Assembly: GCA_013115125.1 (NCBI GenBank)
Contig: JABANN010000131.1
Coordinates: 1-63,962 of the forward strand
DNA: 63,962 nucleotides
Source of the DNA: Perkinsus olseni
Taxonomy: Eukaryota
Direction: 5' to 3'
The notes under the pieces were generated by a model. The model did no database searches and was not told the origin of the DNA. It worked only from the letters and a program-made list of their open reading frames with translations. The translations under genes were made by a program, and so were the position numbers. The stretch's first letter is position 1; each line of letters begins with the position of its first letter. Shown one piece after another: positions 2,492-49,072 of the stretch.

Positions 2492-5469
2492 CTACTCATC
2501 AGCACTAGTAGAGGAGCTTTTAACTTCTCCACCAACCGGCGGAGGCTGCTGACGAAGCGGGTCGTCCGCCGCGCCACTCGCAGCTAGTACCGCATTTTCC
2601 TCAGCAGTAGCAGCGGACTCGGGCGTAGTAGAAGCACCCCAGCCATCAGCATCAGTGCCACTCACGGCTCCTGATGTACCAGGCCCGGCCTTGTTGGCAC
2701 CAGTAGTAGGAGGCGCGAAGGCGTCCTTGAGGCTTTCCCAGTTGTCACTGGCCAAACCCTGTTGTTGGGCCTTGGCCTCAGCAGTGGCGTTAGTGGTAGC
2801 AGTGGAACCTTCTCCGGCGCTGCGGTTGTGGCTAGGCGTCGCCGCCGAGCCCGAGACAGTACGAGGAGCTCCGTACTGTTGTTGCTGTTGCTGATGGGCA
2901 CCACTCGCGGCCTGCGGACCAACCCCTTGAGAAGGAGGGCCACCATAACGACCATCACTCTGGTGCATGCTTCCGGTGTTGGGCTGGCCAGAGTAGTAGG
3001 AGCCACCATAACCCCCACCTTGTCCGGGATGACCACTGTTATAGTAATGCTGCCTACTACCATAACCATTGTCCTGCTGCTGATGATGATAATCACGACT
3101 TCCGTAATGGAACCCGCCGGCGGACCCGTGGCGATACTGCATACCACCATAGCCGCCACCACCACCCGAAGGGTATCCGCCGCGACTGTTGCCACTGGCA
3201 AGCTGCGGCGCCATCTGATGTCTGCTGCCTCGACGGCCTTGCGGACTCAGCTGTGGGAACTTCGCGATCAACTTCTTAGCAAGCCTTTGATGACGACCAG
3301 CGTCAATATCATTCTGAGCTCTGTTACCACCATAACCACCATGAGAGGGTTGCTGCTGCTGCTGTTGCTGACCAGGACCATACATCAGATCAGCCACGCA
3401 CGGCTGGACCGCGTCGACCAGAGTCTGGAAGGTCTTTCCTCCCTCTTGACTGGCCAAAGTTAGCATCTTTTGCAGGACGTAGTTGCCGTACTTGTCAAGG
3501 AGAAGCTCTCTAACAGCACCGATAGAGACGATCTCGTTGATCAGACTTCGGACGTATTCCAGGGAGCTCTGTGCAAGGAGATGCTCCATGCAGTTGGAGG
3601 AGTACTTATGCTTCGACATTTCAACCACCTAACGAAAAAACATCATTGGCGCTCACAAATCCTCGGCGATCTCACCTGTGGTCTGACGATGAGGCCCATC
3701 TGGGCTACAGCCTGGTGGCCCTCCTCCGTCTGCATCAACTCGCTGCCGCCTTGCAACAGGTGCTGCACAGCATAGTTGCCGAACTGATCTCGAGACAGTC
3801 TCTCGAAGTTATCAACAAAGAGCTTCAGCAAGCGCCTTGAGTGCCTTCCCACGACAATCGGCAACCGCTGCTGTTGTGGCACAGGAGTTCGGCCCGGACC
3901 ACTGGGCGTAGGGGATGGTGGTGGGTCGTTAGGGTAGGTGGTCAATAGGTGAGGATGGGCCTCCACTCTATCCACTGAGGTAGCCCTCTCGATCACTTTC
4001 TTAACCGTAACAACACCCCATTGGCTGCAGCATATGTCGCACATGCGGTCGATAAGTATCTCCAAAAGCCAGCCACTTTGTCCCATAACATCAAGGACCT
4101 TCAGAAGGACATAACAGCCGTTGGGATCCAGTGCCAGCTCAAGGCAGCACTGTCGAATGGCGCCCAGTAGCGGCAACTGATTCGAACCATGATACCTAGT
4201 ATTAGCCTCAGAGATGATCTTCTGCACGACTCGGGTGCCGTGCGTATGCGTGCACATCTCAAAGAGAGTTCTACCACGCAAAAGTTGATTTGATATTATC
4301 ATCTCGAAAGTGGGCATGTCGCAAACGTCAATCACTGCCTGGGAAACGTAGTTGCCGATAGGGTCAAAGGCAAGCGTGACGAAGTGCGGTACCAGGCGTT
4401 GCACAACCTGCTGTACCTCTTCATTAGTGTACAGATTGTCCTTACCGGTGCCGTGCTTCCTCAGCATATCCTGGAGATGGATCGAACTCATATGGTCCTC
4501 AGCGTAGGCCACCACTTCACGGTCGCTCAAACGCATGAACATGTCGAATACGAAGGCCTGACCACCGCCCGAGCGATGCTGCTGTTGCTCCATGGCAGCT
4601 CTCCTTTGATAGCTGTCAGGACCAGCAGGCTGATAGTACGTTCCAGCCATAGTGAGGTGCCCACCACTGTGAGGATATTGTCCAGAACCCTCGTAGTAAG
4701 CCGGTGGAGATGGTTGACGCTCGTACGCGCCATAGCCGCTCCCGTACCCAGGAGTAGCAGTGTAATACTGACCACCGTTAACGCCTCCTCCCGCGGCGTT
4801 AGGCTCGCCATTGTAAGGAGCATAGCCGCTCGCGGGGGCCTGACCCATATAGTAGCCCTGAGAGTTGTCAGGAGTAGCATAACCAGGGCCCGCAGCATAC
4901 CCAGCCGCTGAGCTTCCCTGGTAGTTGGGAGGGCCAGGAGGGACTTGCCCTTGGCCGGGCACTTGGGTGTAGTACTCGTAGCCAGCTGAGGGGGTACTGG
5001 CGGTTCCACGGTACATGTCGGACTCATTGCCTGAGGATGACAGGTGACGACTGTAGTGAGCCCCGGCTAGGGAGGTTGACTTACCTCGGACGTCAGTCGA
5101 AGCTCCTTGCCATTGCGTGAGTCCACTCGGCCATGTGTCCCGGGGGGCCGCCTGAGAGAAGAGGTCCCCGATAATACGGAAGAGCAGATCTTATTGACGT
5201 ATTCACAGCTCGGGATGATCGATTATATTCTATCACATGCCAGCTCAACCTCAAGATAATGATTGTAGATTCCGTCTAATGTATGCTTCAACCTTAGATA
5301 CGCATCTTACGGTTTCAAAAGATACTTCAACAGAGGTCGACCTAGAGCTCAAAGCTTCCCCTCCCGTTCATACCTGCATGTCGGGTCTTGCTGTCCAGCC
5401 CGATGGGGCAGGCATCCCTCCGCCCAGAAGCCTCGAGTCTCTATGTGGTGCCGCTGCAGAATTACTCAT
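2492..5469 (-). CDS. Pumilio/Puf-family RNA-binding protein (spliced)
   Basis: Puf repeats (DPIGNYVSQ, HTHGTRVVQK, DPNGCYVLLK, DQFGNYAVQH, HKYSSNCMEH, DKYGNYVLQK) in ORFs 3643-5016 and 2492-3628, joined by GT-AG intron 3629-3675. Start at 5469 is inferred via small upstream exons. Confidence 0.9.
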
Positions 5470-5975
5470 ACCAACTTGTTCCAATTGTATAGGTAATAAT
5501 AGGGCGACGGCTACTGCAACCGTAAAAGGGCCCTATCAGTTCAAGGAGGAGCTTGCGACGCGGAGAACATAAACGCGTTGAGGAATTGCAAGAGCTCAAG
5601 ATTGACGAGCAGTCGCGCACGCCTCTGCGATCGATTGAGCCATCATCTTCTCAAATTGAAGTCCCCGCGACGATCTCGACAGTCACCGTGCCTTCCCTGA
5701 GTAGCCACTCGCTTATTCCCTCCAGGTTTCGAAAGGGTCTTGGGCCTCGCGCTTGACCGTATCTAGTGCTCGTATGAATGTTACTCACATGCTCGCTCCA
5801 CCCAGGTTCAATTCCCGGCTCTTCCATCTCTAGAGGTCTTTCGCGTTCAATTGCTGGTTGCCCAGGCCCAATGTAGCCAAGCACATCTCTCATCATTATT
5901 TACTTGCTCGGACAAAATCCGCTATAGAGATATCACTCGTAGTTAGCCTGTTATTGTTGTTTAATAGAATCTTTA

Positions 5976-8592
5976 ATGTCGGTCGAAGCGGTCATGCTGT
6001 GCTTGGACACCTCCGAATGGTGTCGCAACGCTGATTACGTGCCTGATAGAATCCAGGCCGAGACTGAAGCGGCCAACCTCATCTGCGGGGCGAAGTCACA
6101 ACAGCATCCTGAGGTAATTCTGTAGAGCTCAAGGGTCGACCTAAGATTCCTCCTCCATTCAGACGGCTGTTGGAGTATTGACTATGAGCGGCAGCAGTGA
6201 CGGCTCCGGCGTGGATGTAGGCCCCGTCATCGCATCATCAACATCGCCTCGTCACACCGGTCGTTGTCAGCTTCGACAAACTCCCACGACGAATCTCGGC
6301 GAAATGCTAACAGCGTTGTCGAACCTCTCGCCCGAAGTCAAGGACTTCGGCCCGAACGGTCCTAGGTCTGCAGACTTGGTAGTATCTTGGGTTCAACTTC
6401 AGCCATCGGTTAGGGGAATCTTTTGAAGGGTTGGCGGTCTTGTCGATGGTTACTCACTCGAAAGATTCTTTGGAATCTTGACCGAATCTCAGGTCCGGGG
6501 GATACAGACAGCGCAGTTGGTGTTGAAGCACAGACAAAATAAAAATCAAAAGCAACGGATCGTGTGCTTTGTGGGCAGTCCCGTGGGTGCTACTAAAAAA
6601 CAGATGGAGACACTTGGAAAAAATCTCAAGAAGAACAACGTGGCCATCGGTAGTAGTGGTGGGGTATTGGTGCAGTGGTACGCGCTATGCCTGGCATTCC
6701 GGAGGTCGCGGGTTCGAGCCCATCTTGTTCGGCCATCAGATATCGTCAGTTTTGGTGAGGTCGATGCGAACAAGCCCCTTTTGCAAGACCTCTTAGACCA
6801 CGCTCAATCCAGCGGCAACAGCTGCATGGTAAGCAACGCTCGAGTCCACGCCGAATAACAACCAAGCGTCTCATGGGACTCGTCTAACGAATGAATCTCC
6901 CGGAGTACACTGAGGCAACACCCTGGAAGTCGGAGATGACGGTATCTGGTAATCTAGTAAAATCGGATACCGATCCACCATTGGGGTCCTCGAGTCAATT
7001 AGCCTCCGGGTTTGGCGGTTGCGAAGGAGGGCGGTCCATCGTCTGCTCCGTCAACGAGATGAGCGCTCCAGTGGATGCAGACTCACCCTCCGCGTGTCGT
7101 TGGACATGGCCGTTGGGGAAGGGCTTCGCTTCAGGTGGAGGTCCCGCCTTACACTGACCAGATCATGTCCGACGTCCTCATGAGTACGCCAGTCGTCACT
7201 CCCGAAGGAGCAGCTCCTCCTGCTGCTGCTGCCGGTGAGGGAGGCTTTGAGTTCGGAGTGGACCCTAGCCAGGATCCTGAGCTGGTACGTCGTCCACGCA
7301 TGCACATAAGATTCACGTGAGGTCGATCAGGCGATGGCACTGCGCATGTCGATGGAGGAGGAGAGGGCAAGGCAGGGTCAGAGTGCCGCTGCTGGAGGCG
7401 AGGGATCGGCGGCACAGCAGGAAGGGAGTAATACATGAAGCGTTGAAGTGACGGGCTATATACGATCAACTTATAGAGGCGTTGGTCACTTTTATGTCGA
7501 CCTATTATCATAATCGTTATCGGAGAGATGGTGTGCTCTATCGTTTTCCGAAGGTGTTAGTGTCTACCTTGCGGGAATCACTACCGTTCATTGCACAACG
7601 GAAATGTCATATACTCCTTCAGGCACCGCCGCCGCCCCTGCTGCCCCTGCTGGGTCTGCTCAAGAGAGTTCGGCCAGCACTTCGGAGATGGACCCTCGGC
7701 TGCAGGCAGCACTCGCCGACGCTGCTGCTGCCGGGGAGGAGGTTGGTCTGTTCGGAGATGATGATTAGTCGTCCAGTGGCTTCTTGGCAGGTTGATGATG
7801 AACTTCGTCAAGCCTTGTTGTTGTCTCTGCAAGAGTCGGACTCGCAGCAGAACAAACAACAGCAGCAGCAGCAGCAGCAGCAGGAACAGCATAAGGAGGA
7901 AGGTAGTGTCCGAACCCGGGGAGGGAGTGCTTGATGGTTGTCCTACTAGGCGAGAAGAAACCGGAAGAGAATGCCGCCGAAGAGGTGCCTGCGAAGACCT
8001 CTGCTCCCTCGGCTCCGGCGCCTGAGGACGACATGGATGAGGAGTTGAGGAAAGCCCTGATGGAGAGCCTGGAGGATTGGGATGGCGGGTAGGGAAGGGG
8101 TTTCTAACGCAGCGAGAATGATATCTTTCTACGATCGATCATGGATTACTCTTTACCTTACTTAAGTGTCGTAAAGCCTCTGATTGGCTGACGCTATTGA
8201 GCACTGTTCCTTTGGTAGGGAGAAGACTAAAGGCGATGGGGATGCCTTGGCCGAGAAGAAGCAGAAGAAGGACAAACCAGCTGCTGCTGATTCCTCATCC
8301 TCGTCTTCATTCGCCCAGGGAGCCTCCGACGAAGCCGCGATCTTCCAGGTGCAACCTAAGATACCCTCGATGTTAGCGATGCGCCTTCGCGCTTTAGGAC
8401 CCCTCGATGGTTGCCGAGCTGCTCAGTGGACTGCCTGGCGTCGACCTTAACGATCCTAGGATCCAAGAGGCCCTCAGGGACTTGCAGCAAGGGTGAGCTT
8501 CGACCCTCCCCACTAGGGCGTGTAGCGAACTTGTATTCCTCAGGGATAAGGGGGACTCGGCGAAAAAAGACGACGACAAGGAGAAGCAGTGA
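5976..8592 (+). CDS. RPN10: 26S proteasome ubiquitin receptor Rpn10/S5a (multi-exon)
   Basis: Starts MSVEAVMLCLDTSEWCRNADY; vWA motifs GIQTAQLVLKHRQNKNQKQRIVCFVGSP and KKNNVAIDIVSFGE; UIM VDPSQDPELAMALRMSMEEE; C-terminal LPGVDLNDPRIQ. Confidence 0.95.
6661..6735 (+). pseudogene. Degenerate full-length tRNA-like sequence filling RPN10 intron 6650-6739
   Basis: A-box TGGTGCAGTGG at 6668-6678 (T8, A14, G15 and GG at canonical offsets), variable loop AGGTC, B-box GGTTCGAGCCC at 6711-6721; stems pair poorly. Confidence 0.7.
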
Positions 8593-8869
8593 CTGAGGGG
8601 AGAGTAGCCACTGTTCTATCATCGAAGGGTTGTAGTTTTCGTGGTCGCAGCAGTGACGGTTGAGTTACAGTTCTTTGAGAGTTGGGAAGAGCTGTTCATT
8701 GGCAGTTCATTGTTCGTCCCTCGATGCTCCATAGGGGAATAGCACCGACAGGTAGTACCATGGGAGAGCAGCTGGGAGCGGTCGACTATACTCATACTGA
8801 GCCAGCTTCGACCTAAGATGTTGATGCCGTAGTATGAGCACTGGAATCACTTCATTTTATCCTATTGAC

Positions 8870-10086
8870 AGTAACGCTTTGGAGAAGAGGCGTGTTTTGA
8901 TGGTGGCTCCGGCCAGCTGGAACCCCTCCAGGTCTCTTTTACGCTCGTCTTTTCTTGCTCGTACCAGCCACCGTTGAAAGCACTGCCCAACTCAACGCGA
9001 AATCGACCGAATAGCGAACAGCAAGAAAGTGGCAAATTTGTTATACCAACTTCTGCTCTGCGTCGCTCGGACATCTGTGCCGGCGTGGTGGCGACTTCTA
9101 CTGGATTTTCTCAGGTCCTCGAGGAGGCCTGCCTTTCCCGAGTACAAGCACCGTGGTGAAGTCCTCGCCACTTTCTGGCGCCTACGATGATGATGACGAG
9201 GAGTAGGTGGATGATTTGAGGGAAATTTGGTATGTAAAAGAACGTGCACGCGGTGCTGATCAGATACGACCCGATGCATCCGAATGACTATGATATTATA
9301 AACAGAGAGCGTAAACGTAAGGCTGAGGAAGATGACCTTGCCGAAAGGAAGGAGATCGCAAGTAACATCTTGGCGACCTTGAGATACTCCAAAGACATTC
9401 TCAGAAATTGCGGCTAAACCTGCGGTCCAGAAGGATTCGGCCGGGAGCAAATTGTTGAAGAAAATGGGTTGGACAGAAGGGCAGGTGAGGAATCTTATGT
9501 TCATGCTTGCTTTCGGCAGAAAATGTTCTCTTAGGGTCTCGGAGCTCAGAATCAGGGGATAACGGCACCGTTGATGCACAAGAAAATTGACTCGACGCAG
9601 GGAAAGATAGAAATGGGGAAGATTTCGGTGAGGAGGGCGGAGCGATGGGAAGTGGGAGACGATCGAATCAGATTTTGCCACCGAGTATTGGCCAATCGTC
9701 ACCTGAGCCTGAGAGCCGAATTTTGCTATTAAAGAATATGGTGGGTAAGGGAGAGGTAGATGAGGACCTTGAGGATGATGTCAAGGAAGAGTGTGAAACG
9801 TGAGTATCCATCAACTTGAGCTATCTTGTATCCTACCAGCATCAACCTTAGATACGGCAAGGTCGAAGAAGTGAAGGTCCTCGAGCTCCAGACTGAGGTC
9901 AGAGTATTTGTAGTGTTTGGTGACGTTGCCGCGTCAGAAAAGGCGAAAAAAATCATGCATGGCCGGTAAGCCACGCGCGCGGCGTCAAACTATGATTCTC
10001 GTTCCATCAGAACCTTCGACCAGAAGCGAATCGACGCTACCTCGTACGATGAAGGGAAGTACAGCAGAGGCATCTACGACGCTTGA
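8870..10086 (+). CDS. SPF45: Splicing factor SPF45/RBM17 (G-patch + UHM); start uncertain
   Basis: YDPMHPNDY motif, G-patch GSKLLKKMGWTEGQ, UHM KNMVGKGEVDEDLEDDVKEECERYGKV; stop TGA at 10084-10086. Confidence 0.85.
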
Positions 10087-11029
10087 CGATTCGACACGTG
10101 TTGTGTTGTTAAGAATGCTCTGAGCTACACATCGGGCATCTCAAAGCACTACGAATATTTACTTCGCGATCAACGTGATCGACGCTTCAACGACATCATC
10201 ATCTCACCATGCGTTGTCTCGGCGTCATTTCGTTCCACGCGTGCGTCTCGATGCGAAAGATTTCTGCCACATCATCGCATTGTTCGCGAAAAAATCGCGC
10301 AAAATAGTTTGAAATGCAGAACAGATGAAAGTCCAGAGCAGCTGTTCTGAAACTCGCCATTTTTACACGCTAAGCGATCAGAGTCGCTTTACCTGATCGA
10401 TCAGGGCTCGGTTCATCTGAGCTCTCGATGTATCGTTAAACCATTTCTCGATCGAAATGAATTTTTTCGGTTCATTTGAAAAGACACGAGGAAGGAACGA
10501 AAAAGAGTAATTATTTGAACGGGAAATAGTGATTGTGTTTACGACCCCCAGATGGATACGTTGTGTAACGCTCAAGTCGCCCATCGACGTGTACACGACG
10601 GGCAATTATCGCCTTCTTCGAGTTGTTGTCGCGGAGGTTAGATGACAGACCGTCGTCCCGAGACAAATAACGTGGAGACGAAGTGACCAGCAGTGGTCTG
10701 TCAACCTAGTTGTTAGCACCTCCTTGATTTCTGCTGAGATTAGTCCTGACACGCGGATCAGGAGTTGTTAGGCGAGGACCCCTCCCTTCAGGCCCCAAGC
10801 GGCGCACGAGAGAGAATCTGCATCTCGAAGGAAGGCTATCCCAGAGAGCACTTGAACGACAACAGGAGCAAGTAGTGACGATAGTAGAAGGCAGACGAGG
10901 CGAATAGTCCGGTCGATGAGTTCATCAAACAATCAGCAGGAGGAGGAGGAGCGATGATACAAAACTTAGCATCAACGACGACGACAAGTATGGCGAAAGT
11001 CAGACAAGAGCACAGAGAGTAGTTCACAA

Positions 11030-12973
11030 ATGATATAACTTCGAGGCGAATGATACGCATAGAAGTGCTAAGTACAGGGTCAGGACGCCAAGCCTGGGTT
11101 AGGTTTCCTCTTCTCCGAGCTCCGAAAAGATACCGGAGTCTTCATCTTTGTTATCGTCATCGTCATCGGCATCCTCGGAATCGTGCTGAGGAGGAAACGA
11201 CAATTACACAGATTATGATAAGACCAATCACAAACATATGTCTAATCGTCAGCGACTCAGCGACGAATCATGTTCTCTCGCTGACACTCCAGCGTAGAGG
11301 TTTTCACGGGCGAGTAGAGGCCTCAAGAAAGAAAAACTTTTTGATGAAAAAAGCGAATTTTGATAATCTCATCGATAGAACGCTCAGTGTTCTTATAAAA
11401 CGGAAGGCAACTCACCAAATCGAAGTCCCACGCTCCGCTGACGGCGCCACTGAAGCCAGTGCGGACCTTAGGAGCTCGCGGAGACCGGTATCTAAAATCA
11501 CACGAAGTGCAACCTTCGACCTAAGATACTTCTAACTCACCCTGGAGGTTTCGTGGGCTCCCTTTGCTCAATTGTCGGTAACTGTTTCAGGAGGTCGACA
11601 AGAGCCTCCTTGTCGGCCTGGCGGAAAAATGCATCGTGTCGGGAGAGAAGCTGATCGACGGAAGGCCTGAACAGAAGGCAATGACGATGTAGGAGAGAAC
11701 GGCGAGATGCCCACCGCTTGCTAGGGTCCTTCTGAAGACAGTCAGCCACCATTTTCACGAACGAGGAATCCCACGGGGTTGACTTAGTTCGCTCTAAGGT
11801 CGGCGGGGGATTCTCTAAGATATTCTTCATGACCTGAATCGAGAAAATCTTCGCAGTGCGGCAGATGCTTCGCCTGCGTACCTTCAATGGGTGAAGATTC
11901 TGATAGGGTGCGCTGCCGTTGGCCAACTCTAACGCCGTCACTCCGAAGGACCAAATATCCGCCTTATAGTCGTACCTGTCTTCGCGTCACCCCAACGGAG
12001 AACTGTGGCAAGGCGACTACCCATTTTTGCTCTGCTCAAGAACCTCAGGGGCCATCCAGCAGGGCGTTCCGACGAAGGTCTGTCGAGACCTGGAGTCTCT
12101 CATCGACGCAGAGACACCGAAGTCAGACAGATACCTGGTTAAGAGAATCTAAGAGGGAATTTGGGGGAAATGTGGTATTACACTCTGCCGTCTAAACTGA
12201 GGAGGATATTGCCCGCCTTAAGGTCGCGGTGAATTTGCTGGTTGGAATGAAAATGACGAAGGGCTATAGCCGTTTCCCGAAGAATGTACGCTATGATCCC
12301 GATGTTCTGAATGATGATAGCAACAGCAGACTACCGTCACCGCGCCACGAAATTACTGTAACTATTACGTTGATGCTGTGACCAGTGCGCTTCTTGAACT
12401 CTCTGATGACGTTCTGGCACGAGCCGCCGTTGATGAGGGGCATGACCAACCACATTTTGGCGTCCGGAGAGGAAAACGCAGCGTGGTAGGTGATGACCTG
12501 GACGCGATGGAAATGACGATTTTCGAGCGGCCGCGGGTATTATCACATTCGGATGAGTGCACATCCGCATGACTTGAAGTTCCTTGCGGATGTCGTCGAA
12601 AGTGGTGCCATCAAGGCACTCGAGATCGATCACTTTAATCGCCGCTGGTTCGCCGGAATGAACGCCCGATACGACAGTAGCCTTGTACCTGGCAAAATCT
12701 TGCTCGGCAGATGCGTATCTTAGGTCGAAGCTGGCACTCCACGGAATGGCTCATATAAGATACATAATTCCAAAAAAGTTCCATACCATTCCAACGCCAA
12801 GAAACGGTCGCTAGCTCGACTCTTCCGTCCCTACGGAAACCCTTCCCGACCTACACAGTAGCGAAAGCACCGTAGCCGATGGAGCACTCGAGTTGATAGC
12901 CTTCAGTAGTGGTGGGCCACTCACTAGGAGGCTCATGCACGCCACCTCCCGATGGCGATGATGTCCCTGTCAT
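11030..12973 (-). CDS. STE20-family Ser/Thr kinase (OSR1/SPAK-like); 3' end approximate
   Basis: [60 protein letters not shown] across many short-intron exons. Confidence 0.88.
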
Positions 12974-13139
12974 GCGAGATACTGACTAAAGCAATCTGGA
13001 GAAGCCGAGAGATGAAAATTGACATTCGTGCAACGAGAACTTCGCTCCGCTAGAAAGAATCTCGCTCGCCCGGCTGATCGTTTGCGCTCTAATCCGCTAT
13101 TGCAAGCCTTTGTCTCTCAGCCGCAGCGAGGATTGAACC

Positions 13140-13841
13140 ATGGTAATAGGGACGGGGAGGCATTTTATGCTACTTTACTGTTGTTAACCTGTCGAGAGAC
13201 TCCCATTAACGTGGCGTTGACTGTGTCCATCTTTTCTTGTTGAATCGACGGCGGCTGCTTTCAGGCCAAGTCCGGCAAGTCGAACCCCATGCGCAATTTG
13301 CGCATCGAGAAGTTGACTCTCAACATCTGCGTTGGTGAGTCCGGTGATAGGCTCACTCGTGCCACTCGTGTCCTCGAGGCCCTCACCGACCAGAAGCCCC
13401 TCACTTCCAGCGGTAATAATTTTTTCCCGTCGGGAATTTTCCGGGAGTATTTTTCGCGCTTTTTCAGCTCGCTACACCATCCGTTCCTTCGGCATCCGTC
13501 GTAATGAGAAGATCTCCTGCCACGTCACCGTCCGCGGTGAGAAGGCCGCCGAGATTCTCGAGAGGGGCCTCAAGGTCAAGGAGTACGAGCTCCGCGACCA
13601 GAACTTCTCCGAGACCGGCAACTTTGGTTTCGGCATCAGCGAGCATATCGATCTCGGCATGAAGTACGATCCTTCCACTGGTATCTACGGTATGGATTTC
13701 TACGTCCATATGGGCCGCCCTGGTCGTCGTGTCGGTGAGCGCAAGCGCAAGTCCGCTCACGTTGGTCGTCATCATCGCGTGTCCGCTGATGAGACCAAAG
13801 AGTGGTTCAAGGCCAAGTACGATGGCATCATCCTTCACTAA
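13140..13841 (+). CDS. RPL11: 60S ribosomal protein L11 (uL5)
   Basis: [27 protein letters not shown]...[16 protein letters not shown]...GIYGMDFYV; introns follow the ATG (13143-13264) and fall near 13413-13467. Confidence 0.98.
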
Positions 13842-15029
13842 GCGGCGGTTCTGCTGTCCACTCGTGTTGTCTTCGCTACTACGATGATGATACGGATGGA
13901 GGCGACGCGGTCGGTTAACTGTCGACGGAGTTTGGCCCCCGGACCATTTCTGCTGCGAAAGGAGATTTTTATCGGAGTTGTGTTGATCATGATTTAACAG
14001 GGGATGGCGAAAGAAAGTGGGAAATTTGAGAGTTGGGACGGCTGGGGAATTCGTCTTGTGGAGGCCTTACGTTGTGAGTTGGGTTCTAACGAGACTCCGG
14101 ACGCGAGACCGTACGTGCTATCACGTTAGTCTGGTTGAGGTCTTGGGGCACAGCCGAGCTGCTCGCCTGTGTGCGGAGGTTAACAACACCAGGTTGATGG
14201 AGTTTTCGTAATTCTGTCTTGAAGTGTGCGATTAGTCTCTACCAGGTTTATGAAAGGGTTAAAGTGCCAAAGAAATGTTTCTGCGTACAAATGCCTGAGA
14301 AATTTTTGGGCCGAATACTCCGCTTCGGAAATGCGATTCGAACCGAGTGCCTCTTCGTCGTAATGAACAGCGGGAAAAAAGTAAAAGTAAAATAGAAAAT
14401 CAATTTGCATCGAAAGCATCTACTGCGCATTTGTGAAGCAAGAAAGTTGGAATTGTTAGGCCGATACCCGATAAGGAGAAATTGGTGGTGGCTTCGAAAT
14501 TCTCTCGCGGGCGGCGATGATTAATTGAGAGGGTTTTTCTCCTTCTCTGGCGAGACAAACAACGAAACACACTTTGTGTATTGACAGAATATCAGACGGA
14601 AAAGTAGGCGATTGGTGTTGCCCGACAGACGAGTTGTGGTTGGTGTGGTAGTAACGAAAGAATGGTAATGAGCAGCATCTGTGATAGCAAACTTATGAGA
14701 ATCATGATGATCGATGATGATGATGAAATTGTTTTCGCGCGCCTTTCACCATTGAGGGGGACGGAGAGAAATAAATAATAAAACAATTACATGGACTTAG
14801 ACCAGTGGGACTACGACGACTATGACATGTTCTGCAGAAATCTGTTTGGGACTAGAACGCTCTTACGACTACTGACGGCTATGGCTACTAGCAGCAGTAG
14901 AAGGAAATGTTAATGATACAGAGTTGTCGTGTGATGTTGTTGAGCAAGCATCACACCGGACGACCACCGTTCATGTCTTCTTGAACAGGACGACGACGTT
15001 GACGATGATGACGTCATTAAATCACATGC

Positions 15030-17144
15030 TCATGGTGGTGAGGACGCGCTCTTGGTGGCACCACCGAAGTACTTTAAGTTTCGATCTCGAACGCTGATGC
15101 AAAAACAGGAAAATTCACAAGTGTGATTAACTGTCGAAGGACTTACTGTTCTCTCGCTGATTGGGACACTGACGGCACTGGAGAGGTTGTTGCCGATCCC
15201 TGCTTACTCTCAGTTGATTCCAGTCGGGCGGTAGCTCCTAAGGGACGACCGATACTGACTGGTTGGAGAAAGGGTTTTGTCATACGCTTAGTTTTCTGCC
15301 ACAATCGGGCCATCAAACTGGTCTTCCTCGGCGACAGCTCACCGCCTTCAGAACGGGTTTGATGACTCGCTTGGGTCTCCCCAAAGGTAGTGCCCTTCTT
15401 AATCAGACAAGGCGAATCATCCTGCAAGGACGATTGCGGTAAAAACGGAAAAAATTTTTCCCCTGTTACTGTAGAGAAGGCGTCCTCCGGGTTTGTGGTG
15501 TGCGGGAAGTTAGAGTAAAATTCCAACTCGTCAAAATTCCACACAGGCCGTAAATTCAAATTCCGGAGGTACCTGCCGTAACAGCACTCAAGAAGGGGGA
15601 AGAGCCAGCAAGACACCTACACTTGGCATTGGACAACGAGCCGCTTCTTCTGCTTGGCAATCGGCGATGCACTGGGCGAAGGAGGACAGTCCGACGATTG
15701 GCTACTGCCAACCTCTGCGTTGGCTGCTTTTAAAACCTACAGGGAAATGTCGATCGCAATCTGTACTAAGGAAATTCTGTCCGAGCGAAAAAATGATTTT
15801 ACGATAATTTTCCCTCATCAACCGATTTTATGAATCATCTCGCTGTGCGACTTACTTTAACAGCTTCCTCGTAAACATCTGGCATTAGTCGTTCCAGCGC
15901 TTTGTGGTCATAAGGTGCAATGGCCATGGTGCGCCGCTCGTACCTGTCACTCTAGGAAGATACAGAAAAAAAGATACTTCCATGACCGACCTCCTCGGGC
16001 ATCCTTCTAGTATGTCCAACTCTCTCAACTTAGAAGGCGAGACTTTGTAAATTTCCCTGAAGAAAGCCATAGTCGATAATCGCAAAAAGCGCACGCCCTG
16101 ATGATCGATATTACCCTTCCACAAGGAGGCCGGCTCCGGGTATGTCCAACAGGTAGGGGAAGAAGTAGTTGGCGTCGTATATCATAGGATAGGGGATAGC
16201 AGTTTGTGCAGCGGTCACGAAGACAATGTCATCACTCCCTCCTGAAAAAAAATGTCATGAGCAGGGATCGAACCTGCGTGGATGCTCACCCCGCGGTAAC
16301 ATGTACTTCTGATTCCTGCACCCCCGCTTGAGAGTTCCTAAACAGGCAATTCTCAAACTGCTCCATACCACACTTTCTCCTACCATATACAAATACTAAC
16401 TGCGGGGTGGGCTCGTACTCGCAGTCACTGAGGCAGGTGCCTTCCAAATGGCTTTCCGTTGGCGATATCAACGACCATGGAGATCGGACCCTGAACCCGA
16501 TTCATAAATGCGCGTATGGGACGCCAGTCGGACCCAGGCCCTCCTCCGCGAGCGCTTTCGGCTGATACTAAAGAACACGAGCTCATGTTGCGACGCATGT
16601 TAGGGGAAGAGGCCATGTACCGGAAACTGAGAAAAAAAGATTCTCATTGATGTGAGTGGTGATCTTTCTGACACCTCTAGCTGTGCTTACCTAGGGTCAG
16701 ACGCAGCAGTGTGCAGAGGTGCCCCCAGCCCTGAAGGGGAGCGTCCAGCACAGGGCGTGGATGATGCATTCCTGGGACGAGGGGGGCTGCCGGGCCCTTC
16801 AGTGAGGAGACTCCAGTAAGGAGCCCGCCTGAGATGGGTGATTCGAACGCTCGACGACAGAAGGCTGTCATCTCCTCCCTACCGAGGGGCGCCGCCGCCG
16901 TTGGTGCTGTTGTTGTCACCGCCGCCGCCGCCGCTGCAGTAGCTACTGAGTGAATTGGTCGAAGGCCAATTGTGTCGAGTAAGGGACGGGGATGAGGAGG
17001 AAGGGGCGCCAACCGGAAGCCCGTTGTTGAACATGATAGAAGTACACGAAGCGACTGAGGATAAGAAGCGAAAGCGTGATCATCCCTGCATGGATCGACA
17101 CGAGAATCTTTTGTTTCGTATCTTCCGTCCTCGACCTCGAGCAT
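15030..17144 (-). CDS. Gamma-glutamylcyclotransferase (GGACT/AIG2-like) domain protein; termini approximate
   Basis: Spliced exons give LVFVYGTLKRGCRNQKYM...PYLLDIPGAGLLVEGEIYKV...LRELDILEG, the GGACT signature. Confidence 0.75.
16242..16289 (-). other. 48-nt spliceosomal intron made of a tRNA 3' end plus oligo-T
   Basis: gtgagcatccac-GCAGG-TTCGATC-CCTGC-TCATGAC-A-T8-cag; removing it restores the GGACT frame (LPRG/GSDDIV). Confidence 0.85.
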
Positions 17145-17312
17145 ATAAGCCTTTCGTTGGCGACACAATCCTTTGATCGATTAAAGCCGCAATTGTAGCA
17201 TAAAAGTACCGCGCGCAAAATTCCAGATGAAGCTAGCACTACTAGTCTGTAAAACCTCCCCGGTGAGGCACCGAAACACTCAGTGAGAAGGAAACGACGC
17301 TTCTATTATGAA

Positions 17313-17862
17313 CTAGTTGTAGTAGAGTTCGAGCCCCATTCCATCGTGAATCTCATAGTCCGCCAGCGTGATGTGGTCCTTGTATACAGTGTACCACTTC
17401 TGTATCCGAATCTTCTCCGGTCGGGTGCCTGAACCATCAGTCCCAATACCAAAGGCTGTTCCAGCGAGACATGGGTGATTCCGAAGACGCCTGCCTCGCT
17501 CAAGAGTGAGACTTCGGCTACGGAACTTCTGGAGAAGTAGCCTAGTATCATAAAGTATCGAGACCCGCATACTATTTTCACCTCCAAAATTCATAAATTT
17601 TGGTGGAGTGCCCAGAATTACAGCTCAAAACGACCACGAAGAAGCAAGGCGGCTAAACTCAGTAGCGACAAACCCGCCTTCACAAAACCATCATTCACAC
17701 CTCGGTGAAACACCCCTCAAGTAAACCTGCTGCGGCGGCCCTCTTCTCATTCGTACCTATCTGAGCTGCCAACAGCTTTTTGAGGTCGCCAATGGTGTCG
17801 TCGGGGTTGCACTTGACCCGAATCTTCTTCCCGAGACGATCGTTGCAAACGACCTCGATCAT
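17313..17862 (-). CDS. UBL5: Ubiquitin-like protein 5 / Hub1
   Basis: [36 protein letters not shown] + [37 protein letters not shown]; one intron. Confidence 0.97.
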
Positions 17863-21370: not shown

Positions 21371-22792
21371 ATGCCAGTCCGGCGACCGACGAGGCTCGTG
21401 CCTTGGTACGATGGACTCGACGCAACTGCACAAGTTTCCGCTCCTGATGATGAGAAGGTCGAGGCCGCGCCCTCTGTGAACCTGCCTGTAGTAGAGAAGG
21501 ACATCTGGGAGGACACTGACAGCGACGATAGCGGCACGGAAACCGATGAAGGCATTCAGCGGCCAGAGGATGATGATGAGCACTATGAGGAAGTTGTATT
21601 CAGTAGGTGGTCGTAGTGGGTTGGAGCGGCGAGAGAATGATGCTGGTGGTTCTCTCGCAGTGGAAACAGTGGACGCTGAGGACCCTTCGTTGAAGCTGGA
21701 AGTGTTCCTAACGCAAGGCGGAGTGGCCGTTTTCGAGACCGTTGATGATGAGGAGGAGGATGACACGAGTTCCGATCGGAGTGGTATGGACGAGGATCCG
21801 ATGACCCCGACGAACACGGCCGAATCTAACGGGGTAGTGACAGCACTTCTCATGTTAGCATTGGAAGCTTGGCTCAGGATAAGGGCGGGGTGGAGGAAAC
21901 AGGAGCGAAGCAAGACTTCATTCTACAGGATGACGTCGAGGTTCCTCGGCCGAAAGACGTAGTAGTCGGACACGAGTCGACGGGCAGGCATGCCTGGGTC
22001 AGGTGCTCTTCGTGTGGGATTATGACGATACTATTCTTCCCACGGAGTGGTGTACTCACAACGTATGCCACTTCTACTCTCGCTGAGTCCCCATTGCTCC
22101 GTTCAGGGAGCGTCGCCGTATCGCCCCACTGTTATTCACGATTGGCTCCTGGATGACCTCGATAGGACTGCTGAAATAGTGAGATACATTTCCTACCACA
22201 CCATGCGCGAATCGTGATTTGACTAGGTGCATCAAACTTTGGAAATGTGCCGTGCTCTCGATGGAGAGATCTGCATCATCACAAACGCTGAGAGCGGCTG
22301 GATCGGGTCGGTCAGCCCTTCCCTGTTGACTTGCACGCCATCGTATGGATCAGGTTCAGTAGCCTTGCACTAGTGCCGAGCATGGCTGATTATCTCCTCG
22401 ATTTTGAGATCATATCAGCTCGCAGTGTGTACGCTCCCACGTTCCCTGACGGAGGGAATGGCGCCAGAGTAGGACTCACCTGCCGGCAGGGCTCCAGTTT
22501 GATGATTTATCGATGATCAGTGGAAGATGAGGGCCTTCCACGATAAGATAACAGCATGGTTGAAGAGAAGGAGGGAATGGGAGGAAAGTAGGTTGCCGCT
22601 ACATCATCATTGTATAAAGAGATTCCTATGATAGTTACCGGTGAGGAGTTGGGGGTGCCGTCGGTGTACTCCTTCGGAGACTGCAACGCGGAGCGCGAAG
22701 CTATGAGGCAGGTCTGCAGCGAGTACAATATTATCGGTAGTAGTGGCGGCGTGAGAGGCCTCGATGGTCGTATCTTCAGGGAAGAGCGTTAA
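21371..22792 (+). CDS. Hypothetical acidic protein (multi-exon)
   Basis: Successive acidic ORF blocks separated by GT-AG introns; no family recognised. Confidence 0.5.
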
Positions 22793-23689
22793 GTTCTTGG
22801 AGAAACCACGGTCAGATCAGATTAGGAAGGAGCATAGGATAATACAAGGGTCGTTGAAGCGCTTGGTACTACCAAGTTGGTAGTGGTTTTTTTGGCATGG
22901 TGGTACAACAGCGCGCTTGGAATCAATAGGTCGTTGGTTCGTTCCCAACCTCAATTCCTCTGCGACTTTCGCCCTCGTGGTTGCCCAGCGCTTCTTCTTC
23001 AGATGCAAGAGAAGCGAGACCTTGATCTCTTCATGCGACTTGCCGAAGCACCATAATCGTTCGCGCCGGCGCGGGCCCTCCTCCGCCACAGCACTATGTA
23101 TACTTATGACGATATATATTCCACTGCGCTTCCCTCGCGTATCTTCTTGTTGTCGTTTACTTTTACTTTTACTATCGTCATTACTGGCTCACATCACAGC
23201 TGAGGACGCTATTACTGGTGGGAGTCTCCTGCCGGTGTTAGCCTCATTAGCTTTTAACCATGCCACTGTTCCAGCCATGGTGATGATGGTGTGAAACTTC
23301 TGTTGTTGAATATGTCCTCATTAGTGGGACCTATTGTGTTTCTGAGATGAAACCATTGTGGGGACCAGCTGGACTGTCTTGATGTGTGGGGTCAAGACAA
23401 AAACACGCCTCTACAAAAAGTCTAGGGCCAAGACTCTTGAAACGAGGTGTTATATACATCAACATGTAGAAGGGATCATCCCTTTTGCCTGCTAGGCTAC
23501 TCTTCGATTTGCGTTGCGCTTTCTAGTAGCGTACAGTTAACAATGTGCTACTAACAATATTTCCGAGGGTTTCCGCGAGGGAGGCGGAGTCCGAAGAAAA
23601 ATCCCCCACTAGGTGGATCGTGCCTGAGTACTCTTCACTAATTAGGCACCCGAACCCCTCTCTTAGAGAGACCTTATCGGCGACAAATT

Positions 23690-24730
23690 GTCGACGACAA
23701 TGGACTTTCACAATGCATAGTGTGAGAGTACGCAAGAAGCAATCATCGTCGCTTACCGGGAGTTATGTTTTGATCCTTCGACGGTACTTCCTGGCAATAT
23801 ACGGGCACCTAACACTACGCGGTGGCAAGTGCCTAGTTTGCAGTGCAAACTTTGCACCTACCTGCCTGGAACCTCGGCGAGCTCATCAGCTTCCGTGGGA
23901 CGCGTGAGTACCCTGTTTTCGCGCTTCTGAAACAGACGGCCCGTCTGAGACGGGTTCGGTTCGGATACAGACAAGGCCCCATACATCTTTCGTGCTGGTC
24001 ACTATGTATTAGACATTGCCACGGATCCCACGAGCTGGCGTCTCTTTCTTCCTGGTGTCTCAACGGTTTTCCCGTAATCATCAGTCTCATATTCGAGCAC
24101 CATCGCTCTCTCCGGCCTTGTTGGAAACGCGTGTCGACTGGAGCGATTTTGGATTGGTCCCCCCGATAATGCTCAGCGAAATAGTGTTCTGCTCTCGCAG
24201 CAAACCCGATGTAGAGCGCTTTTTTCTCTGGATCTGCTCAGGTGGTAGCAGACGGTGTTGGACGTATGCTGTAGACACTAGTGCCACTCGTCTAGTGGGC
24301 CGCACTCCCGTTCCGCACGACGAGTGATCGAGCCCTCGATCGAGATAACACTCTCCAACTTGAGAGTTCGAGCGGCTGGTAAACTCCCGACGGTACAGGA
24401 GCAGGTTGCGGACCCGGTCCGCAACTTGCAGTACCCGCAATAGTGATATCACAGATCTGAGATCAGTGATCTCAGAATCTTCCGCGAACGGTTGTGCTTT
24501 CATTCTGCTCGTATCGATGTAATGGCCCCGCCGCGGCGTCTTTCGGCTCTTGCTTGCGTCGCTGGCATGCAAATCTGCGAGTTCGTATCTTCAAATCAGC
24601 TTCTGTCTATGGTCATTGTCAAGGACTCCTTGTTCGTTCAATCCGTTTTCGGAAGATGGAATCCCTTAAACTCGGTGAAACGGTTATACTAAAAACTCAG
24701 CTGGTAGATCTCAGTGAGATCTTGGGATCT
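23690..24730 (+). pseudogene. Disrupted paralog of the 27.9-29.0 kb hypothetical gene
   Basis: Colinear nucleotide similarity to 27995-28900; in-frame TGA where the other copy has TGG, and similarity spread over several frames. Confidence 0.75.
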
Positions 24731-27921: not shown

Positions 27922-29039
27922 ATGGGAGAGTCAGTACTTCTCGAGCGTTTATCGACTGTTCTACCCTACCTGAATAGGCGCTCGAACCTCTTTCTCGGCG
28001 ACAATGGGCTTTTGCAATTCATGATATGGAAATATGCAGCACCAATCTGCGTTGGTTACCACCGGGAGTTATGCTCTTATCCTCTGACTCTACTTCCTGG
28101 CAATATAGGGGCGCCTGACACTTGCCACCTAGCTCCGTGCCACGGAGTCCGTGGGCGCGTGGCGAGATCATCGGCTTCCGTGGCACTCGCGAGTACTCTG
28201 TTCTTACGCTCAGCTGTCGAAACGGACGAGTTCGGGTCGATCAAGGGCCCCCATACATCTTTCATGCTGGTCATTATGTATTAGATATTGCCACGGATCC
28301 CACGAGCTGCCGGATCTTTCTCCTTGGTGTCTCCTACAATGGTTTTCCTTTAATCGTCAGTCTCGTTTTCGACCACCATCGCTCTCTACGACCTTGTTTC
28401 GAAACGCGTGTTGACTGGAGCGATTTTGGATTTGCCCCGATAGTGCTCTGCAAAATGATATTCTGCTTTTGCAGCCATCCTGATACAGAGCGCTTGTATC
28501 TGAGGAGCTGCTCAGCGGATAGTAGACGGTGGTGGGTGTATGCTGTAGATACTAGCCGGCCGCACTCTCGTTCCGCACGACGCGTCGTTGAAACCTCTAG
28601 GAAGATCACAGCTTTGGCCTGCAACTTGAGAACTGGTCATCTCCCGACGGTACAAGAGCAGGTTGCGGTACTAGTTCGCAATGGTGATAACACTGATCTC
28701 AGAATCTTCTACGATGGACTGTGCGTCCATTCAGCTCGTATTGATGTAATGACCCCACCGCGATGCCTTACGACTCTTGCTTGCCTCTCTGGCATGCAAA
28801 TCTGCGAGTTCGCAGCTTCTGTCAATGGCCCCTGTACGTTCAATCTGTCTTTCGTTGAATTTGGTGAAACAGTTCTACTAAAAACTCTCGCTGATTTACA
28901 TTGGCATTGCAATGTGGTACCCTACTCAATTAGTCGTAGTTCTCAGCGAAATACGGTCGATGGAACGGTTGTCTGGTTCATCAACACTCACCGATCCCGT
29001 GACACGTGTCTGATCGTGTGTGAGAGCGTATTTAATTAG
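27922..29039 (+). CDS. Lineage-specific hypothetical protein split over two overlapping frames (possible pseudogene)
   Basis: ORFs 27922-28284 and 28122-29039; synonymous substitutions versus the 23.7 kb paralog support both frames. Confidence 0.5.
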
Positions 29040-29384
29040 CTGTAAGTTCATCGAATCCGTTGTATTTTTCTAAGACGTTATGATGTCCTCATGTGGCATG
29101 ATACTCGTCATATGTTGTCTCAAGAGGGTTGGGACTAATCTCAAGCGTTGAGTTCCTCTCAAATCGAAACGCTTTGGAAGCATAAAAAGTTTCGTACTGA
29201 CGTCCCCTCCGTTCTCCGCGCTCAGGCTAAGATTCCCATGCCACCCCGAATCCCGGCTCCCCACAACCCCCGTAAGCAGTTGGACCGTCCAACTTGGACG
29301 TACTACATCCGATGTAACCGTGGCAGAGCTCAGTAGCCGAACAACATGAAGGAAGGCTGTATGTTGGTCAAGCGTAAGCAGCAG

Positions 29385-29490
29385 TGCTGATTCAGCACAT
29401 TTAATAACTTATTAAATGTGCTGAATCAGCAAAAAACCCAAGCAAGTACATGTGCTTTAAGGTTTCCCCCTCTCAAAGAGGGGGAAACCT
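29385..29490. repeat. Two perfect inverted repeats (23-bp arms at 29385-29431; 14-bp arms at 29460-29490)
   Basis: TGCTGATTCAGCACATTTAATAA-C-TTATTAAATGTGCTGAATCAGCA and AGGTTTCCCCCTCT-CAA-AGAGGGGGAAACCT. Confidence 0.95.
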
Positions 29491-43533: not shown

Positions 43534-43773
43534 CGCTTCAACAACACGACCACAACAGAAGCCTCAACTGACCTGAGGAATTTACTGACACCTCTAGCTG
43601 TGGATTATCCCAGGCAACCCGACTTGGCGAACATATAGTAATTCTGATGAAACTTGCTGATTGCGGCCGAGAGGAATGATGCGACTACAGTTTAAACAAT
43701 CTTACAAAAAACGCACTATCTGCTCATCACATCACGACGACGACCAAATCGATCGCCAGGGCGCGCGCTACTC

Positions 43774-46490: not shown

Positions 46491-48856
46491 TTACAAGGCC
46501 GTTCCCCTCTCGAGATTAGCCTTGATCTCCTTAGTGTACCTGCAGAAAAAAAATGACCGGTGCCGGGATCGAACCTGCGCCCCAAGCCATACTTGCCGAA
46601 CTCCCTTTCGATCTTCCTATTGAAGTGCTGGTTACGAGCATTGATGTAATCAACATCCTCATCCGGATTGACCAGACGGCGTCTGAGACAAGGACCGCTC
46701 TACCATTGCCGCCAGTCCGTCGATGGCATAAGAAGAACTTTCAAATTAAGGAAGACAATAACATACTCATGAATAACTAATAACGGCAATCTGAGTGAGA
46801 GACCTTTCAGGATGCAGCGCTTTTACGATCATAATTTCTTCCCTCAACTTTCTTGGGATCAATTTTTTGAACCCTCACGAGTTTTCTTCGTTGATTCTTC
46901 TTCCGAACTTCCATGATTTATGAGTTTCTACTAGCCTACTCCCTACTTCATAATACTAGGAGAGCTTCTATCTAGTAATGATAAAACTACCTCCACCAAA
47001 ACTTTGAAACTGTCGCGAAATTCAAGAGTCCCAAAAAATCTGCAGCTCATACTCCCCCCCCCCACACCTGGAGAAGGCCCTCCGCTTGTCATCAGCTTTC
47101 TTCATGGCCTGGGCCAACCGCTCCTTGCCCTCCTCGGAAGGCTTCGCACTGACCAGATCCTCGTCATCGTAGAAGGCTTGCCCGAGAGCTTCCTTCTGCT
47201 TTTCATACCTGGCAAGGAGGGCTGGCGAAGGCTTCTATAGGGGGAGGGCCGTACTTCACTTCATTAAACTGCACATCCACAAGTTTCTTATCGTGCGCTC
47301 GATAGAGAGAATCCTGAGGTCGAGCATGCAAGATACAAAACAGGTCAACCTGAAGACCGCCTACTTCATTGAAGACCTCCCATCCAAAGGTATGATTATT
47401 GCCCTTTCGAGCCTTCTTCTCAGCCCTAGCCTCAGCCATCGATGCTTGCTCGTTGAGATACCATCGCGTGTGGTCCCAATCCTCCCCCTTCTTATACTCT
47501 GACCAACCACCACCTCCCAATTCCCAAGCACCTTCTCCAGTACTACTTCTCCGCTTCCCTCCTGTCCCCTCCGGAGCATCCTGATCTTCCCGAGGGCCCC
47601 CCTGCTGACCCTCCTTATCTTCCTTCAGCACCTCCTCTTGGTTAGCAACCCGCGCCTACCGGAAAATACAGTCACCACGCATCACACTGCCTCAAGGCTG
47701 GCCCTCTTCGCTAGTCGTCAGCGCAATAGTTTCACGATGGAAAGTCGCAAGCAATGCGGAAGATTCGATCCCAACTCACCTGGTTCATCTTCAATCTCAA
47801 CTCGAACATCCTCGCCTCCCTCTTATTCTTGAACCCAGCAGACGGCTGAATAATAACGTCCTGCTCAACCCACTCCAAGGGAAGGCGTCTCACCTTGACA
47901 GGAGTAGAAGATACTTCTTCGACCTCCGACTCGCTGCTGGCTCCAGCCTCGTCCTCATCGTCCTCCAAATCAATCGGTATGTCTTCCGCTGACTCCTCGC
48001 TTTCCGCAGCATTATCAAGCAGCTTTTTGCCTGCGATCAGCATCAGTAACCGACCCCCCTGTTGGACCTAGCCCGATGCCCCCGTACTACCCAAGGAAGC
48101 AGCAGTGGCGACCCCTTCAGCCCGGAGCTGCTTTCGGCTCTTGAATCGGCCTTGCTCGACTGCAGCTTTCCTCTCCTCTAGAGCCTCGTCCACTTCCTTT
48201 TTGCCAACCATACCACATTTCACGATAATTATATCAACGCGAGGGCGATCTTGGTCATCAGTCGGGACCTTCTCTATGGCTCTGATAACCTCCATGCCTC
48301 TAGTGACCCGTCCGAAGGGGACATGGCGGAAATCCAGCGCCCGAGACCTAGCGTACGTAACCATGTACTGCGAAGTGTTGTTGTGGCGCTTCTCTCCTTG
48401 ATAAGTGGTCGTCAAGATACCCGCCCCACTATGCTTGTTGATGGAACTACCATAAACGATATCGCCGGAGCGAACGCCCGAACCCTAGACCTACTTCTCA
48501 TCTCGGAAGGGTTTGCCGTAGACCGACAGACCACTGCTACCGTCATTAGCAACGATATCGCCTCCCTGCAGTCCCTCGCCCTTCACCGATTTGAAAATCT
48601 TCGAATTGCGGTAGGTCAGCTCAGGGCCGTATTCTCCCGTACCTACAGGATTTTCTTTACGCGATGACTATTATCCATAAGATATCCTTGCTTCGCTCCG
48701 CTAAGATTTGCCCCATTTTCCCGTCCTACATAGTCCTCTGAAGTTCTCAGCCGTCTCCGGACAGGTATCAGCGAAGAGTTCGAACTCCACCCGACCACCC
48801 GCAGCCGCGCCGATCTTCACCTCCAGAAACACGCGAGGGTTACGTCGATGCCTCAT
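46491..48856 (-). CDS. Cyclophilin-SYF2 fusion protein
   Basis: N-terminal cyclophilin (NPRVFLEV...FELFADTCPETAENFRGLC, HVPFGRV) and C-terminal SYF2 ([50 protein letters not shown]). Confidence 0.88.
46540..46592 (-). other. 53-nt spliceosomal intron containing a tRNA 3' end plus oligo-T
   Basis: gtatggcttggggc-GCAGG-TTCGATC-CCGGC-ACCGGTC-A-T8-ctgcag; removing it restores SYF2 FGK/YTKEIK. Confidence 0.85.
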
Positions 48857-48886: not shown

Positions 48887-48932
48887 CTGATGTCCGAACA
48901 TGGAATCGAACCCGGGACCTCCAAGTCCGCAC
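48887..48932 (-). other. Putative 46-nt 5'UTR intron with tRNA 3'-half (B-box)
   Basis: gtgcggacttGGAGGTCCCGGGTTCGATTCCATGTTCGGACATCAG, aligning to the 3' part of RPN10 intron 6650-6739. Confidence 0.55.
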
Positions 48933-49072
48933 TCGAACCCAACTGTAGCAGTAGGAAGAGGGTAAGGGGATTGGAAACAAGCACAGTTTTCAACAGTACA
49001 ACGATGATTCGGACGTATGAAGCCACTCGAGCGACTCTCTCTCAGCCACTCGGGGACGTAGTAAATAATAAT

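Follow-up and report, generated by a model that had tools for sequence, protein, structure and literature searches.

The origin of new spliceosomal introns is an old open question, for which the best-documented route is that of transposon-like introners. Introners in Micromonas, Aureococcus, fungi, dinoflagellates and Amoebophrya resemble the case described here in that similar sequence is found in introns of unrelated genes, and in that the splice signals are carried by the insert or lie next to it. The host in our case, Perkinsus olseni, is an alveolate related to introner-bearing lineages. However, most known introners resemble transposons, carry direct and inverted repeats and exist in many copies, whereas the unit described here is a tRNA-gene tail of about 34 nt, with ends that lack repeats, of which two copies were seen in 64 kb. 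In Amoebophrya, which is related to Perkinsus, ‘invasive intronic elements’ have been described that are introners of another structure (PMC7789003).

A second likeness is to tRNA-derived SINEs, which like the unit here have a B-box of tRNA origin, and to Alu exonisation, in which the homopolymer tail of a repeat is used as the polypyrimidine tract, just as the T-run here, apparently inherited, lies at the tract of a 3' splice site. Unlike SINEs and Alu, the unit in P. olseni has no A box, no body and no retroposon tail, and its T-run is a sense-strand terminator rather than an antisense poly-A; unlike Alu exonisation, the product is a whole intron and not a new exon. Introns can also be gained from filler DNA at repaired breaks, as in the new introns of Daphnia, and one intron of mitochondrial-DNA origin is known. 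Such gains share with our case that unrelated cellular DNA in a coding region gives rise to a short intron. They are, however, single events with varied sources, whereas here the same kind of source appears twice with the same boundaries.

Within the same genus, tRNA genes are very numerous and take part in mobile-DNA traffic. The Dada DNA transposons of Perkinsus marinus (PMC3706591) are elements of 4.7-11 kb that target tRNA genes in the A-box region; unlike the 34-nt unit, they are not intronic. A literature search at the level of abstracts and excerpts returned no report of tRNA-derived introners or of tRNA-like elements in Perkinsus introns.

A spliced 48-nt intron in a GGACT-like gene

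The window, by which we mean the whole stretch of 63,962 nt that was analysed (contig JABANN010000131.1 of P. olseni), carries on its minus strand a gene for a GGACT/AIG2-like protein. In this gene a 48-nt GT..AG intron (16242..16289, minus strand) separates ..YMLPRG from GSDDIVF... The intron begins with GTGAGC and ends with CAG, and the coordinates singled out in the initial annotation correspond to precisely this one intron. Contigs of four runs (X7, X8, X11 and X18) were aligned to window positions 5000-17500; X8 is recorded as RNA, and X7, X11 and X18 are presumed to be RNA. In all four runs the contigs join 16240 to 16289 and skip 48 nt, with the plus-strand ends CT..AC.

After excision of 11 RNA-supported introns, the gene yields one open frame of 422 aa with a GGACT-like core, which includes ..LVFVYGTLKRGCRNQKYMLPRG|GSDDIVFVTAAQTAIPYPMIY.. 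across the intron site. The exon downstream of the 48-nt intron matches human GGACT/A2LD1 (PDB 3jub and 3jud) with an E value of 3.2e-4. With GT..AG borders, removal from RNA and a maintained reading frame, the segment has the properties of a U2-type spliceosomal intron, and these 48 bases are a working spliceosomal intron.

The other skips in the same GGACT-like transcript measure 48, 48, 48, 119, 47, 58, 46, 43, 64 and 54 nt among the RNA joints listed, from which we take it that tiny introns, with 48 nt as the modal size, are a feature of this genome. Across the 15 joints listed of 43, intron sizes lie between 43 and 64 nt in 12 cases and are exactly 48 nt in six, the shortest being 43 nt.

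The 5' end of the GGACT-like transcript is a spliced-leader trans-splice acceptor, with the genomic AG at 17055-17056 (minus strand). Beyond this end the RNA contigs carry, in transcript orientation, TCTTGGCTCA joined to the genomic AG (17056/17055), and these 12 bases are identical to the 3' end of the P. marinus spliced leader PmaSL1, which points to Perkinsus as the probable host genus. PmaSL1 reads ACCGTAGCCATCTTGGCTCAAG, in which TCTT sets it apart from the dinoflagellate leader (PMC3101222).

Resemblance to the 3' end of a tRNA gene

Read 5' to 3' on the minus strand, the intron starts with a 12-nt segment (GTGAGCATCCAC, 16289-16278), followed by GCAGG (16277-16273), TTCGATC (16272-16266) and CCTGC (16265-16261). 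Together the latter three look like the 5' strand, loop and 3' strand of a tRNA T arm (16261..16277), with Watson-Crick pairs at five of five stem positions. The same sequence fits the B-box consensus, and the loop with its closing pair agrees with the B-box/T-loop consensus GGTTCGANNCC. Seven nucleotides that resemble the 3' strand of an acceptor stem come next (TCATGAC, 16260-16254), and within this acceptor-strand look-alike (16253..16260) lies the palindrome TCATGA. A discriminator-like A (16253) precedes a run of eight T (TTTTTTTT, 16252-16245), which looks like a terminator, occupies the place of a polypyrimidine tract and lies directly 5' of the terminal CAG (16244-16242). The perfect 5-bp stem, 7-nt loop, seven further nucleotides, A, T8 and CAG listed in the initial annotation are thus all present. 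The intron contains every feature of a tRNA-gene 3' end that was looked for, namely G53, T54, T55, C56, R57, A58 and C61, the 7-nt strand, the discriminator and the oligo-T.

As a control, a metagenome collection was scanned for the same T arm followed by six free bases, CA and at least six T, which gave 36 loci (L001-L036). In 25 of them ARAGORN called a tRNA whose end falls where the pattern predicts it. Six others (L011, L019, L021, L024, L030 and L031) show by eye an intron after the anticodon and a complementary 5' acceptor strand, four (L008, L009, L026 and L028) are truncated by the contig end, and one (L016) has no 5' half. In these real tRNA gene ends the T arm, the 7-nt spacing and the A are identical to those of the GGACT intron and are likewise followed by a T-run without an encoded CCA. 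In contrast to them, the intron has no 5' half, interrupts a protein-coding gene and is spliced out. With nearly all 36 loci being tRNA genes, the layout is in practice diagnostic of a tRNA gene end without encoded CCA, and the geometry proposed in the initial annotation is supported. Its suggestion of a Leu/Ser class tRNA is not, because the control tRNAs include Lys, Thr, Val, Ile, Met, Arg and Leu identities, all with the same T arm; the T arm therefore does not reveal identity. TCATGAC occurs as the acceptor strand in none of these 36 tRNAs.

The 25-mer of the GGACT intron has one match in the window at up to three mismatches, against 0.00 expected, and the pattern GGTTCGATCCCNGCN6CATTTTTT has two matches against 0.00 expected (100 shuffles). 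A loose T-arm definition (at most one mismatch, G-U allowed) gave three matches against a mean of 2.88 in 300 shuffles, which is not significant alone. With about 2.9 such matches expected per window, isolated weak T-arm look-alikes mean little.

Complete tRNAs were called by ARAGORN zero times in the window, and Rfam tRNA (RF00005) gave no match there even at E up to 10. The GGACT intron lacks a D arm, an anticodon arm and a 5' acceptor strand and so does not form a full cloverleaf. The 5' strand GTCATGA is absent upstream of the intron, its nearest minus-strand occurrence lying about 2 kb off at 18340, and the absence of a 5' half noted initially is borne out by these searches. Relaxed ARAGORN searches of the window produced 10 ‘genes’ at an 85% threshold and 48 at 80%, which we regard as noise, and a tRNA-Ser-like relaxed call at 16254-16341 was rejected for its poor cloverleaf.

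The last 36 bases of the 48-nt intron are best read as what is left of a nuclear tRNA gene's 3' end, a relic that is no tRNA and makes none. Its parts would be, in order, position 48, the T arm, the acceptor 3' strand, the discriminator and the oligo-T terminator. Because the T8 is present and CCA is not, a gene or a precursor is a more fitting template than mature tRNA, in agreement with what was originally suggested.

A second copy in a SYF2 intron

A lack of further copies in other introns would have spoken against the initial annotation, but one such copy is present, in a second intron with the same order of T arm, seven nucleotides, A and T8. This intron of 53 nt is predicted from reading frame and homology in the SYF2 gene (..EREFGK | YTKEIKANLERGTAL*; 46540..46592, minus strand). 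The exon upstream matches Pfam PF08231 SYF2 (E 6.4e-10, profile positions 114-144 of 154), and the frame downstream (..YTKEIKANLERGTAL*) matches the C-terminal residues of human SYF2 (E 1.9e-4). From 46592 to 46540 the intron reads GTATGGCTTGGGGC, GCAGG, TTCGATC, CCGGC, ACCGGTC, A, T8 (TTTTTTTT) and CTGCAG.

From C48 through T8, 30 of 35 positions are the same in the GGACT and SYF2 introns (E 0.002 for the window), and they have a 14-mer core, the ‘CA’ and exactly T8 in common. The two genes are unrelated and about 30 kb apart. Both copies are sense to the host gene and flush with the 3' splice site, and together with CAG the unit occupies 36-39 nt of introns that measure 48-53 nt. The 5'-terminal 12-14 nt of one intron bear no relation to those of the other. 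The copies differ at five positions, all of them confined to 9 of the 35 (P about 0.006), and these changes turn TCATGA into ACCGGT; both hexamers are palindromic, a property of about 1.5% of hexamers in the window. Four of the seven acceptor positions differ, while the T-loop core is identical.

In the SYF2 copy the T stem is broken, with A opposite G. The T arm is present in the predicted minimum-energy fold of the GGACT intron, at a z score (-1.42) that is not significant alone, and with +0.53 for the SYF2 intron neither folds better than shuffles. A role in RNA structure is therefore unlikely. Two further structural candidates were considered. A class-II variable arm over the exon-intron border (GGGT GAGC ATCC) is possible with only four pairs and is absent in the SYF2 copy. 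A minihelix between the intron 5' end and the ‘acceptor’ strand was dropped because its pairing is inconsistent between the copies, with six pairs including two G-U in SYF2 and 4/7 by eye in GGACT.

By inspection, no convincing target-site duplication or terminal (inverted) repeat was seen at either copy. A GCA[A/G]GTA repeat at the SYF2 intron was set aside as a target duplication, as the splice-site consensus alone would yield it.

Two heuristics were used for an intron census. The first recovered none of 13 known introns; the second recovered 9 of 12, but just 9 real introns were among the 28 candidates that it proposed for the test region, and because of this low precision its candidates served for all-against-all comparison only. 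Among the 1479 intron candidates compared in this manner, GGACT/SYF2 was the sole similar pair that could not be explained by segment duplication or simple repeats, with the exception of one 18-mer motif described below. The unit is thus present in two clear copies in one 64-kb window.

The T8 run and splice signals

Judged by its position, the T8 is plausibly the polypyrimidine tract of the GGACT intron, and a TGAC-type sequence just before it is a plausible candidate branch site. The initial annotation had the terminator double as this tract, which the position makes plausible. Such a tract is not a general need, however, because only 2 of the 14 RNA-supported minus-strand introns listed have at least seven T in their last 20 nt. 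Given the rarity of long T-runs near 3' splice sites, the T8 seems to have been inherited from the source rather than to have evolved for splicing. The window holds only four T8 runs, two of them directly 3' of the tRNA-like unit.

An AT-rich stretch at 35989-36040 (plus strand) contains one T7 and two T8 runs within 50 nt, with similar words between them (..TTCGA T7 CGAATTC..), and looks like a short local repeat.

Other tRNA-like stretches in the window

A degenerate, nearly full-length tRNA-like sequence occupies a predicted 90-nt intron of the Rpn10/PSMD4 gene (6650..6739, plus strand). It has an A-box-like TGGTGCAGTGGTA, a B-box GGTTCGAGCCC and the end TGTTCGGCCATCAG. Rpn10 homology breaks off at ..KKNNVAI, which is the predicted donor, and the reading frame suggests that the 90 nt are spliced out; the intron is outside the 15 joints listed of 43. 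A tRNA-like partner of this element (48887..48960, minus strand) ends in CATCAG some 40 nt before the start codon of the cyclophilin gene, perhaps within a 5'-UTR intron or an outron. The Rpn10-intron element and 48887-48922 share GGAGGTC[G/C]CGGGTTCGA and TGTTCGG[C/A]CATCAG, two collinear blocks equal at 16/17 and 13/14 positions. Both elements presumably resemble tRNA-Gly.

Although the Rpn10-intron element has both A and B boxes, its sequence differs from that of the GGACT/SYF2 unit, and we regard it, less securely, as a related theme from a different family. The GGACT and SYF2 introns hold a B box only and lack the further parts of a tRNA-derived SINE (A box, body and tail).

A T-loop-like motif is absent from 13 of the 15 RNA-supported introns listed. 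The exceptions are the GGACT intron and a 54-nt intron of the same transcript (16829..16882, minus strand), in which the weak look-alike GCGTTCGAATCAC near the 3' end may be due to chance. The same may hold for weak look-alikes at 5802, 16848, 35237 and 22928. When seven T-arm-like stretches were combined into a covariance model, it added only two weak matches, at 22928-22957 (E 0.048) and 59809-59843 (E 0.16); three of its seven inputs (5797-5826, 16828-16857 and 35217-35246) may themselves be chance matches, as about 2.9 loose T arms are expected per window.

The first of these matches falls in a candidate intron of about 114 nt (22880-22993, plus strand), which starts with GTAGTGG and has a D-loop-like GGTGGTA and a perfect 5-bp stem, GTTGG/CCAAC, around TTCGTTC. 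With its covariance-model E of 0.048 it may be a tRNA-like intron.

Origin of the introns

The reading we prefer, with about even confidence, is that a fragment derived from a tRNA gene was inserted into coding DNA and was tolerated because it is spliced out, which would be an introner-like gain of an intron. A short piece of tRNA-gene-derived DNA, perhaps a 5'-truncated copy from a small repeat family, would have entered the coding sequence in sense orientation. A GT about 12 nt upstream and the CAG right after the T-run would have let the spliceosome excise the insert cleanly, and to this it would owe its survival. The T8 would then take the place of the polypyrimidine tract, with the TGAC just 5' of it as a possible branch site. 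An older intron without the unit, of about 12-14 nt, would have been too short to splice, since the shortest intron listed has 43 nt.

Source DNA for such insertions should be ample, because P. marinus is reported to have tRNA genes in hundreds of copies, for example 349 copies of tRNA-Leu-CTT and 116 of tRNA-Gly-GGA (PMC3706591). An intact source gene would be expected to end in ..GCAGGTTCGATCCCTGC, TCATGAC, A and a T-run if it is reconstructed from the GGACT copy, and in ..ACCGGTC, A and a T-run if it is reconstructed from the SYF2 copy. Counting against insertion are that only two clear copies are present in one 64-kb window, that no target duplication or terminal repeat was found at them, that the SYF2 stem is broken and that the intron 5' ends are unrelated. 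In addition, the clustered, palindrome-keeping differences between the copies are not predicted by simple neutral decay of a mobile family.

Alternatively, no propagating family exists, and pieces of two different tRNA genes sharing a T arm were captured independently, as filler DNA in double-strand breaks, and became introns. We consider this rather unlikely, although it has several observations in its favour: the acceptor positions differ at four of seven while the T-loop core is identical, as for two tRNA species; in the control, tRNAs of many identities have one and the same T arm; the introns are unrelated in their 5' parts; and terminal repeats or target duplications were not found at either copy. 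Against independent capture are that both copies start at the same tRNA position (C48) and have exactly T8, that both ‘acceptor’ hexamers are palindromic when about 1.5% of those in the window are, and that two such events within 30 kb would be a coincidence, unless the process is frequent.

It is improbable that the introns instead go back to a tRNA gene or pseudogene nested in a longer, older intron that was shrunk by deletions to a local optimum of about 48 nt, the 3' part being kept as the carrier of the branch site, the tract and the 3' splice site. Such erosion could draw on the almost full-length degenerate tRNA-like sequence in the 90-nt Rpn10 intron and on the tight cluster of sizes (43-64 nt in 12 of the 15 introns listed, six of exactly 48 nt), but it needs the same 5' endpoint in two unrelated introns and leaves the 30/35 identity unexplained unless both introns hosted the same gene.

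Even less probable is a selected function, by which the conserved GGTTCGATCCC would be kept as a B-box site binding TFIIIC, similar to ETC sites, or the hairpin would aid folding of a tiny intron for splicing. The sequence agrees with the ETC-type B-box consensus GGTTCGATCCC, making it a putative site on sequence grounds, and the B-box core and T8 are identical in both copies with the differences clustered between them. However, the broken stem of the SYF2 copy speaks against selection for a hairpin, folding is no better than in shuffles (z -1.42 and +0.53), and 13 of the 15 RNA-supported introns listed do without any T-loop-like motif. Chance resemblance in a T-rich intron end is scarcely credible, for although about 2.9 loose T arms are expected per window, the full arrangement was seen twice against 0.00 expected and the copies share 30 of 35 positions (E 0.002 for the window).

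Under the preferred reading of insertion, an intron of 48 nt that is mostly tRNA-gene tail, together with a second in an unrelated gene, would add a different source of intron DNA. The case also illustrates how a sequence that stops one polymerase can come to lie where a different machinery reads a splicing signal. The two introns hint that stray tRNA-gene fragments can seed new introns; if they are only two isolated relics, they are a curiosity. A wider claim, which we put forward tentatively and consider unlikely, is that Perkinsus has a genome-wide class of tiny introns from inserted 5'-truncated Pol III genes or precursors, consisting of tRNA tail and terminator, with the oligo-T reused as the 3' splice-site tract. 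If so, such units would amount to a Pol III-derived ‘introner’, an origin of new introns that has yet to be described, and the palindrome-preserving differences may mark the recognition site of whatever inserts the units.

Other repeated sequences in the window

The 18-mer CACAGCTAGAGGTGTCAG occurs exactly three times (0.04 expected), at 16668-16685 (minus strand), 43585-43602 (minus strand) and 60832-60849 (plus strand). All three copies are in sense orientation, and each either closely follows a GTAAG-like site or precedes a start codon (two of them with ATGGCCTCT..). A common element of 5'-UTRs or first introns is one possibility. In three runs the RNA contigs part from the window sequence within this motif, at 16665.

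Two putative introns have the junction ATCG|GTAGTAGTGG exactly in common over 14 nt, at 6646-6659 and 22733-22746 (both plus strand). Words similar to GTAGTAGTGGTGG occur four times in the window, at these two sites and at 2127-2139 and 12905-12916. A near-perfect long palindromic hairpin (GCTGATTCAGCACATTTAATAA..TTATTAAATGTGCTGAATCAGC) is located at 29377-29439 and gives sub-threshold matches to Rfam microRNA families on both strands, the best scoring 32.6 bits against a gathering score of 70.

Near the window start, the duplicated segments 1316-1518 and 2153-2376 contain stretches of 64-67 nt at 100% identity. Paralogous stretches of 95-97% identity are found at 24269-24599 and 28552-28815, and at 61152-61212 and 62591-62651. 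A tandem pair of DnaJ (Ydj1-like) paralogues occupies about 55.0-58.6 kb.
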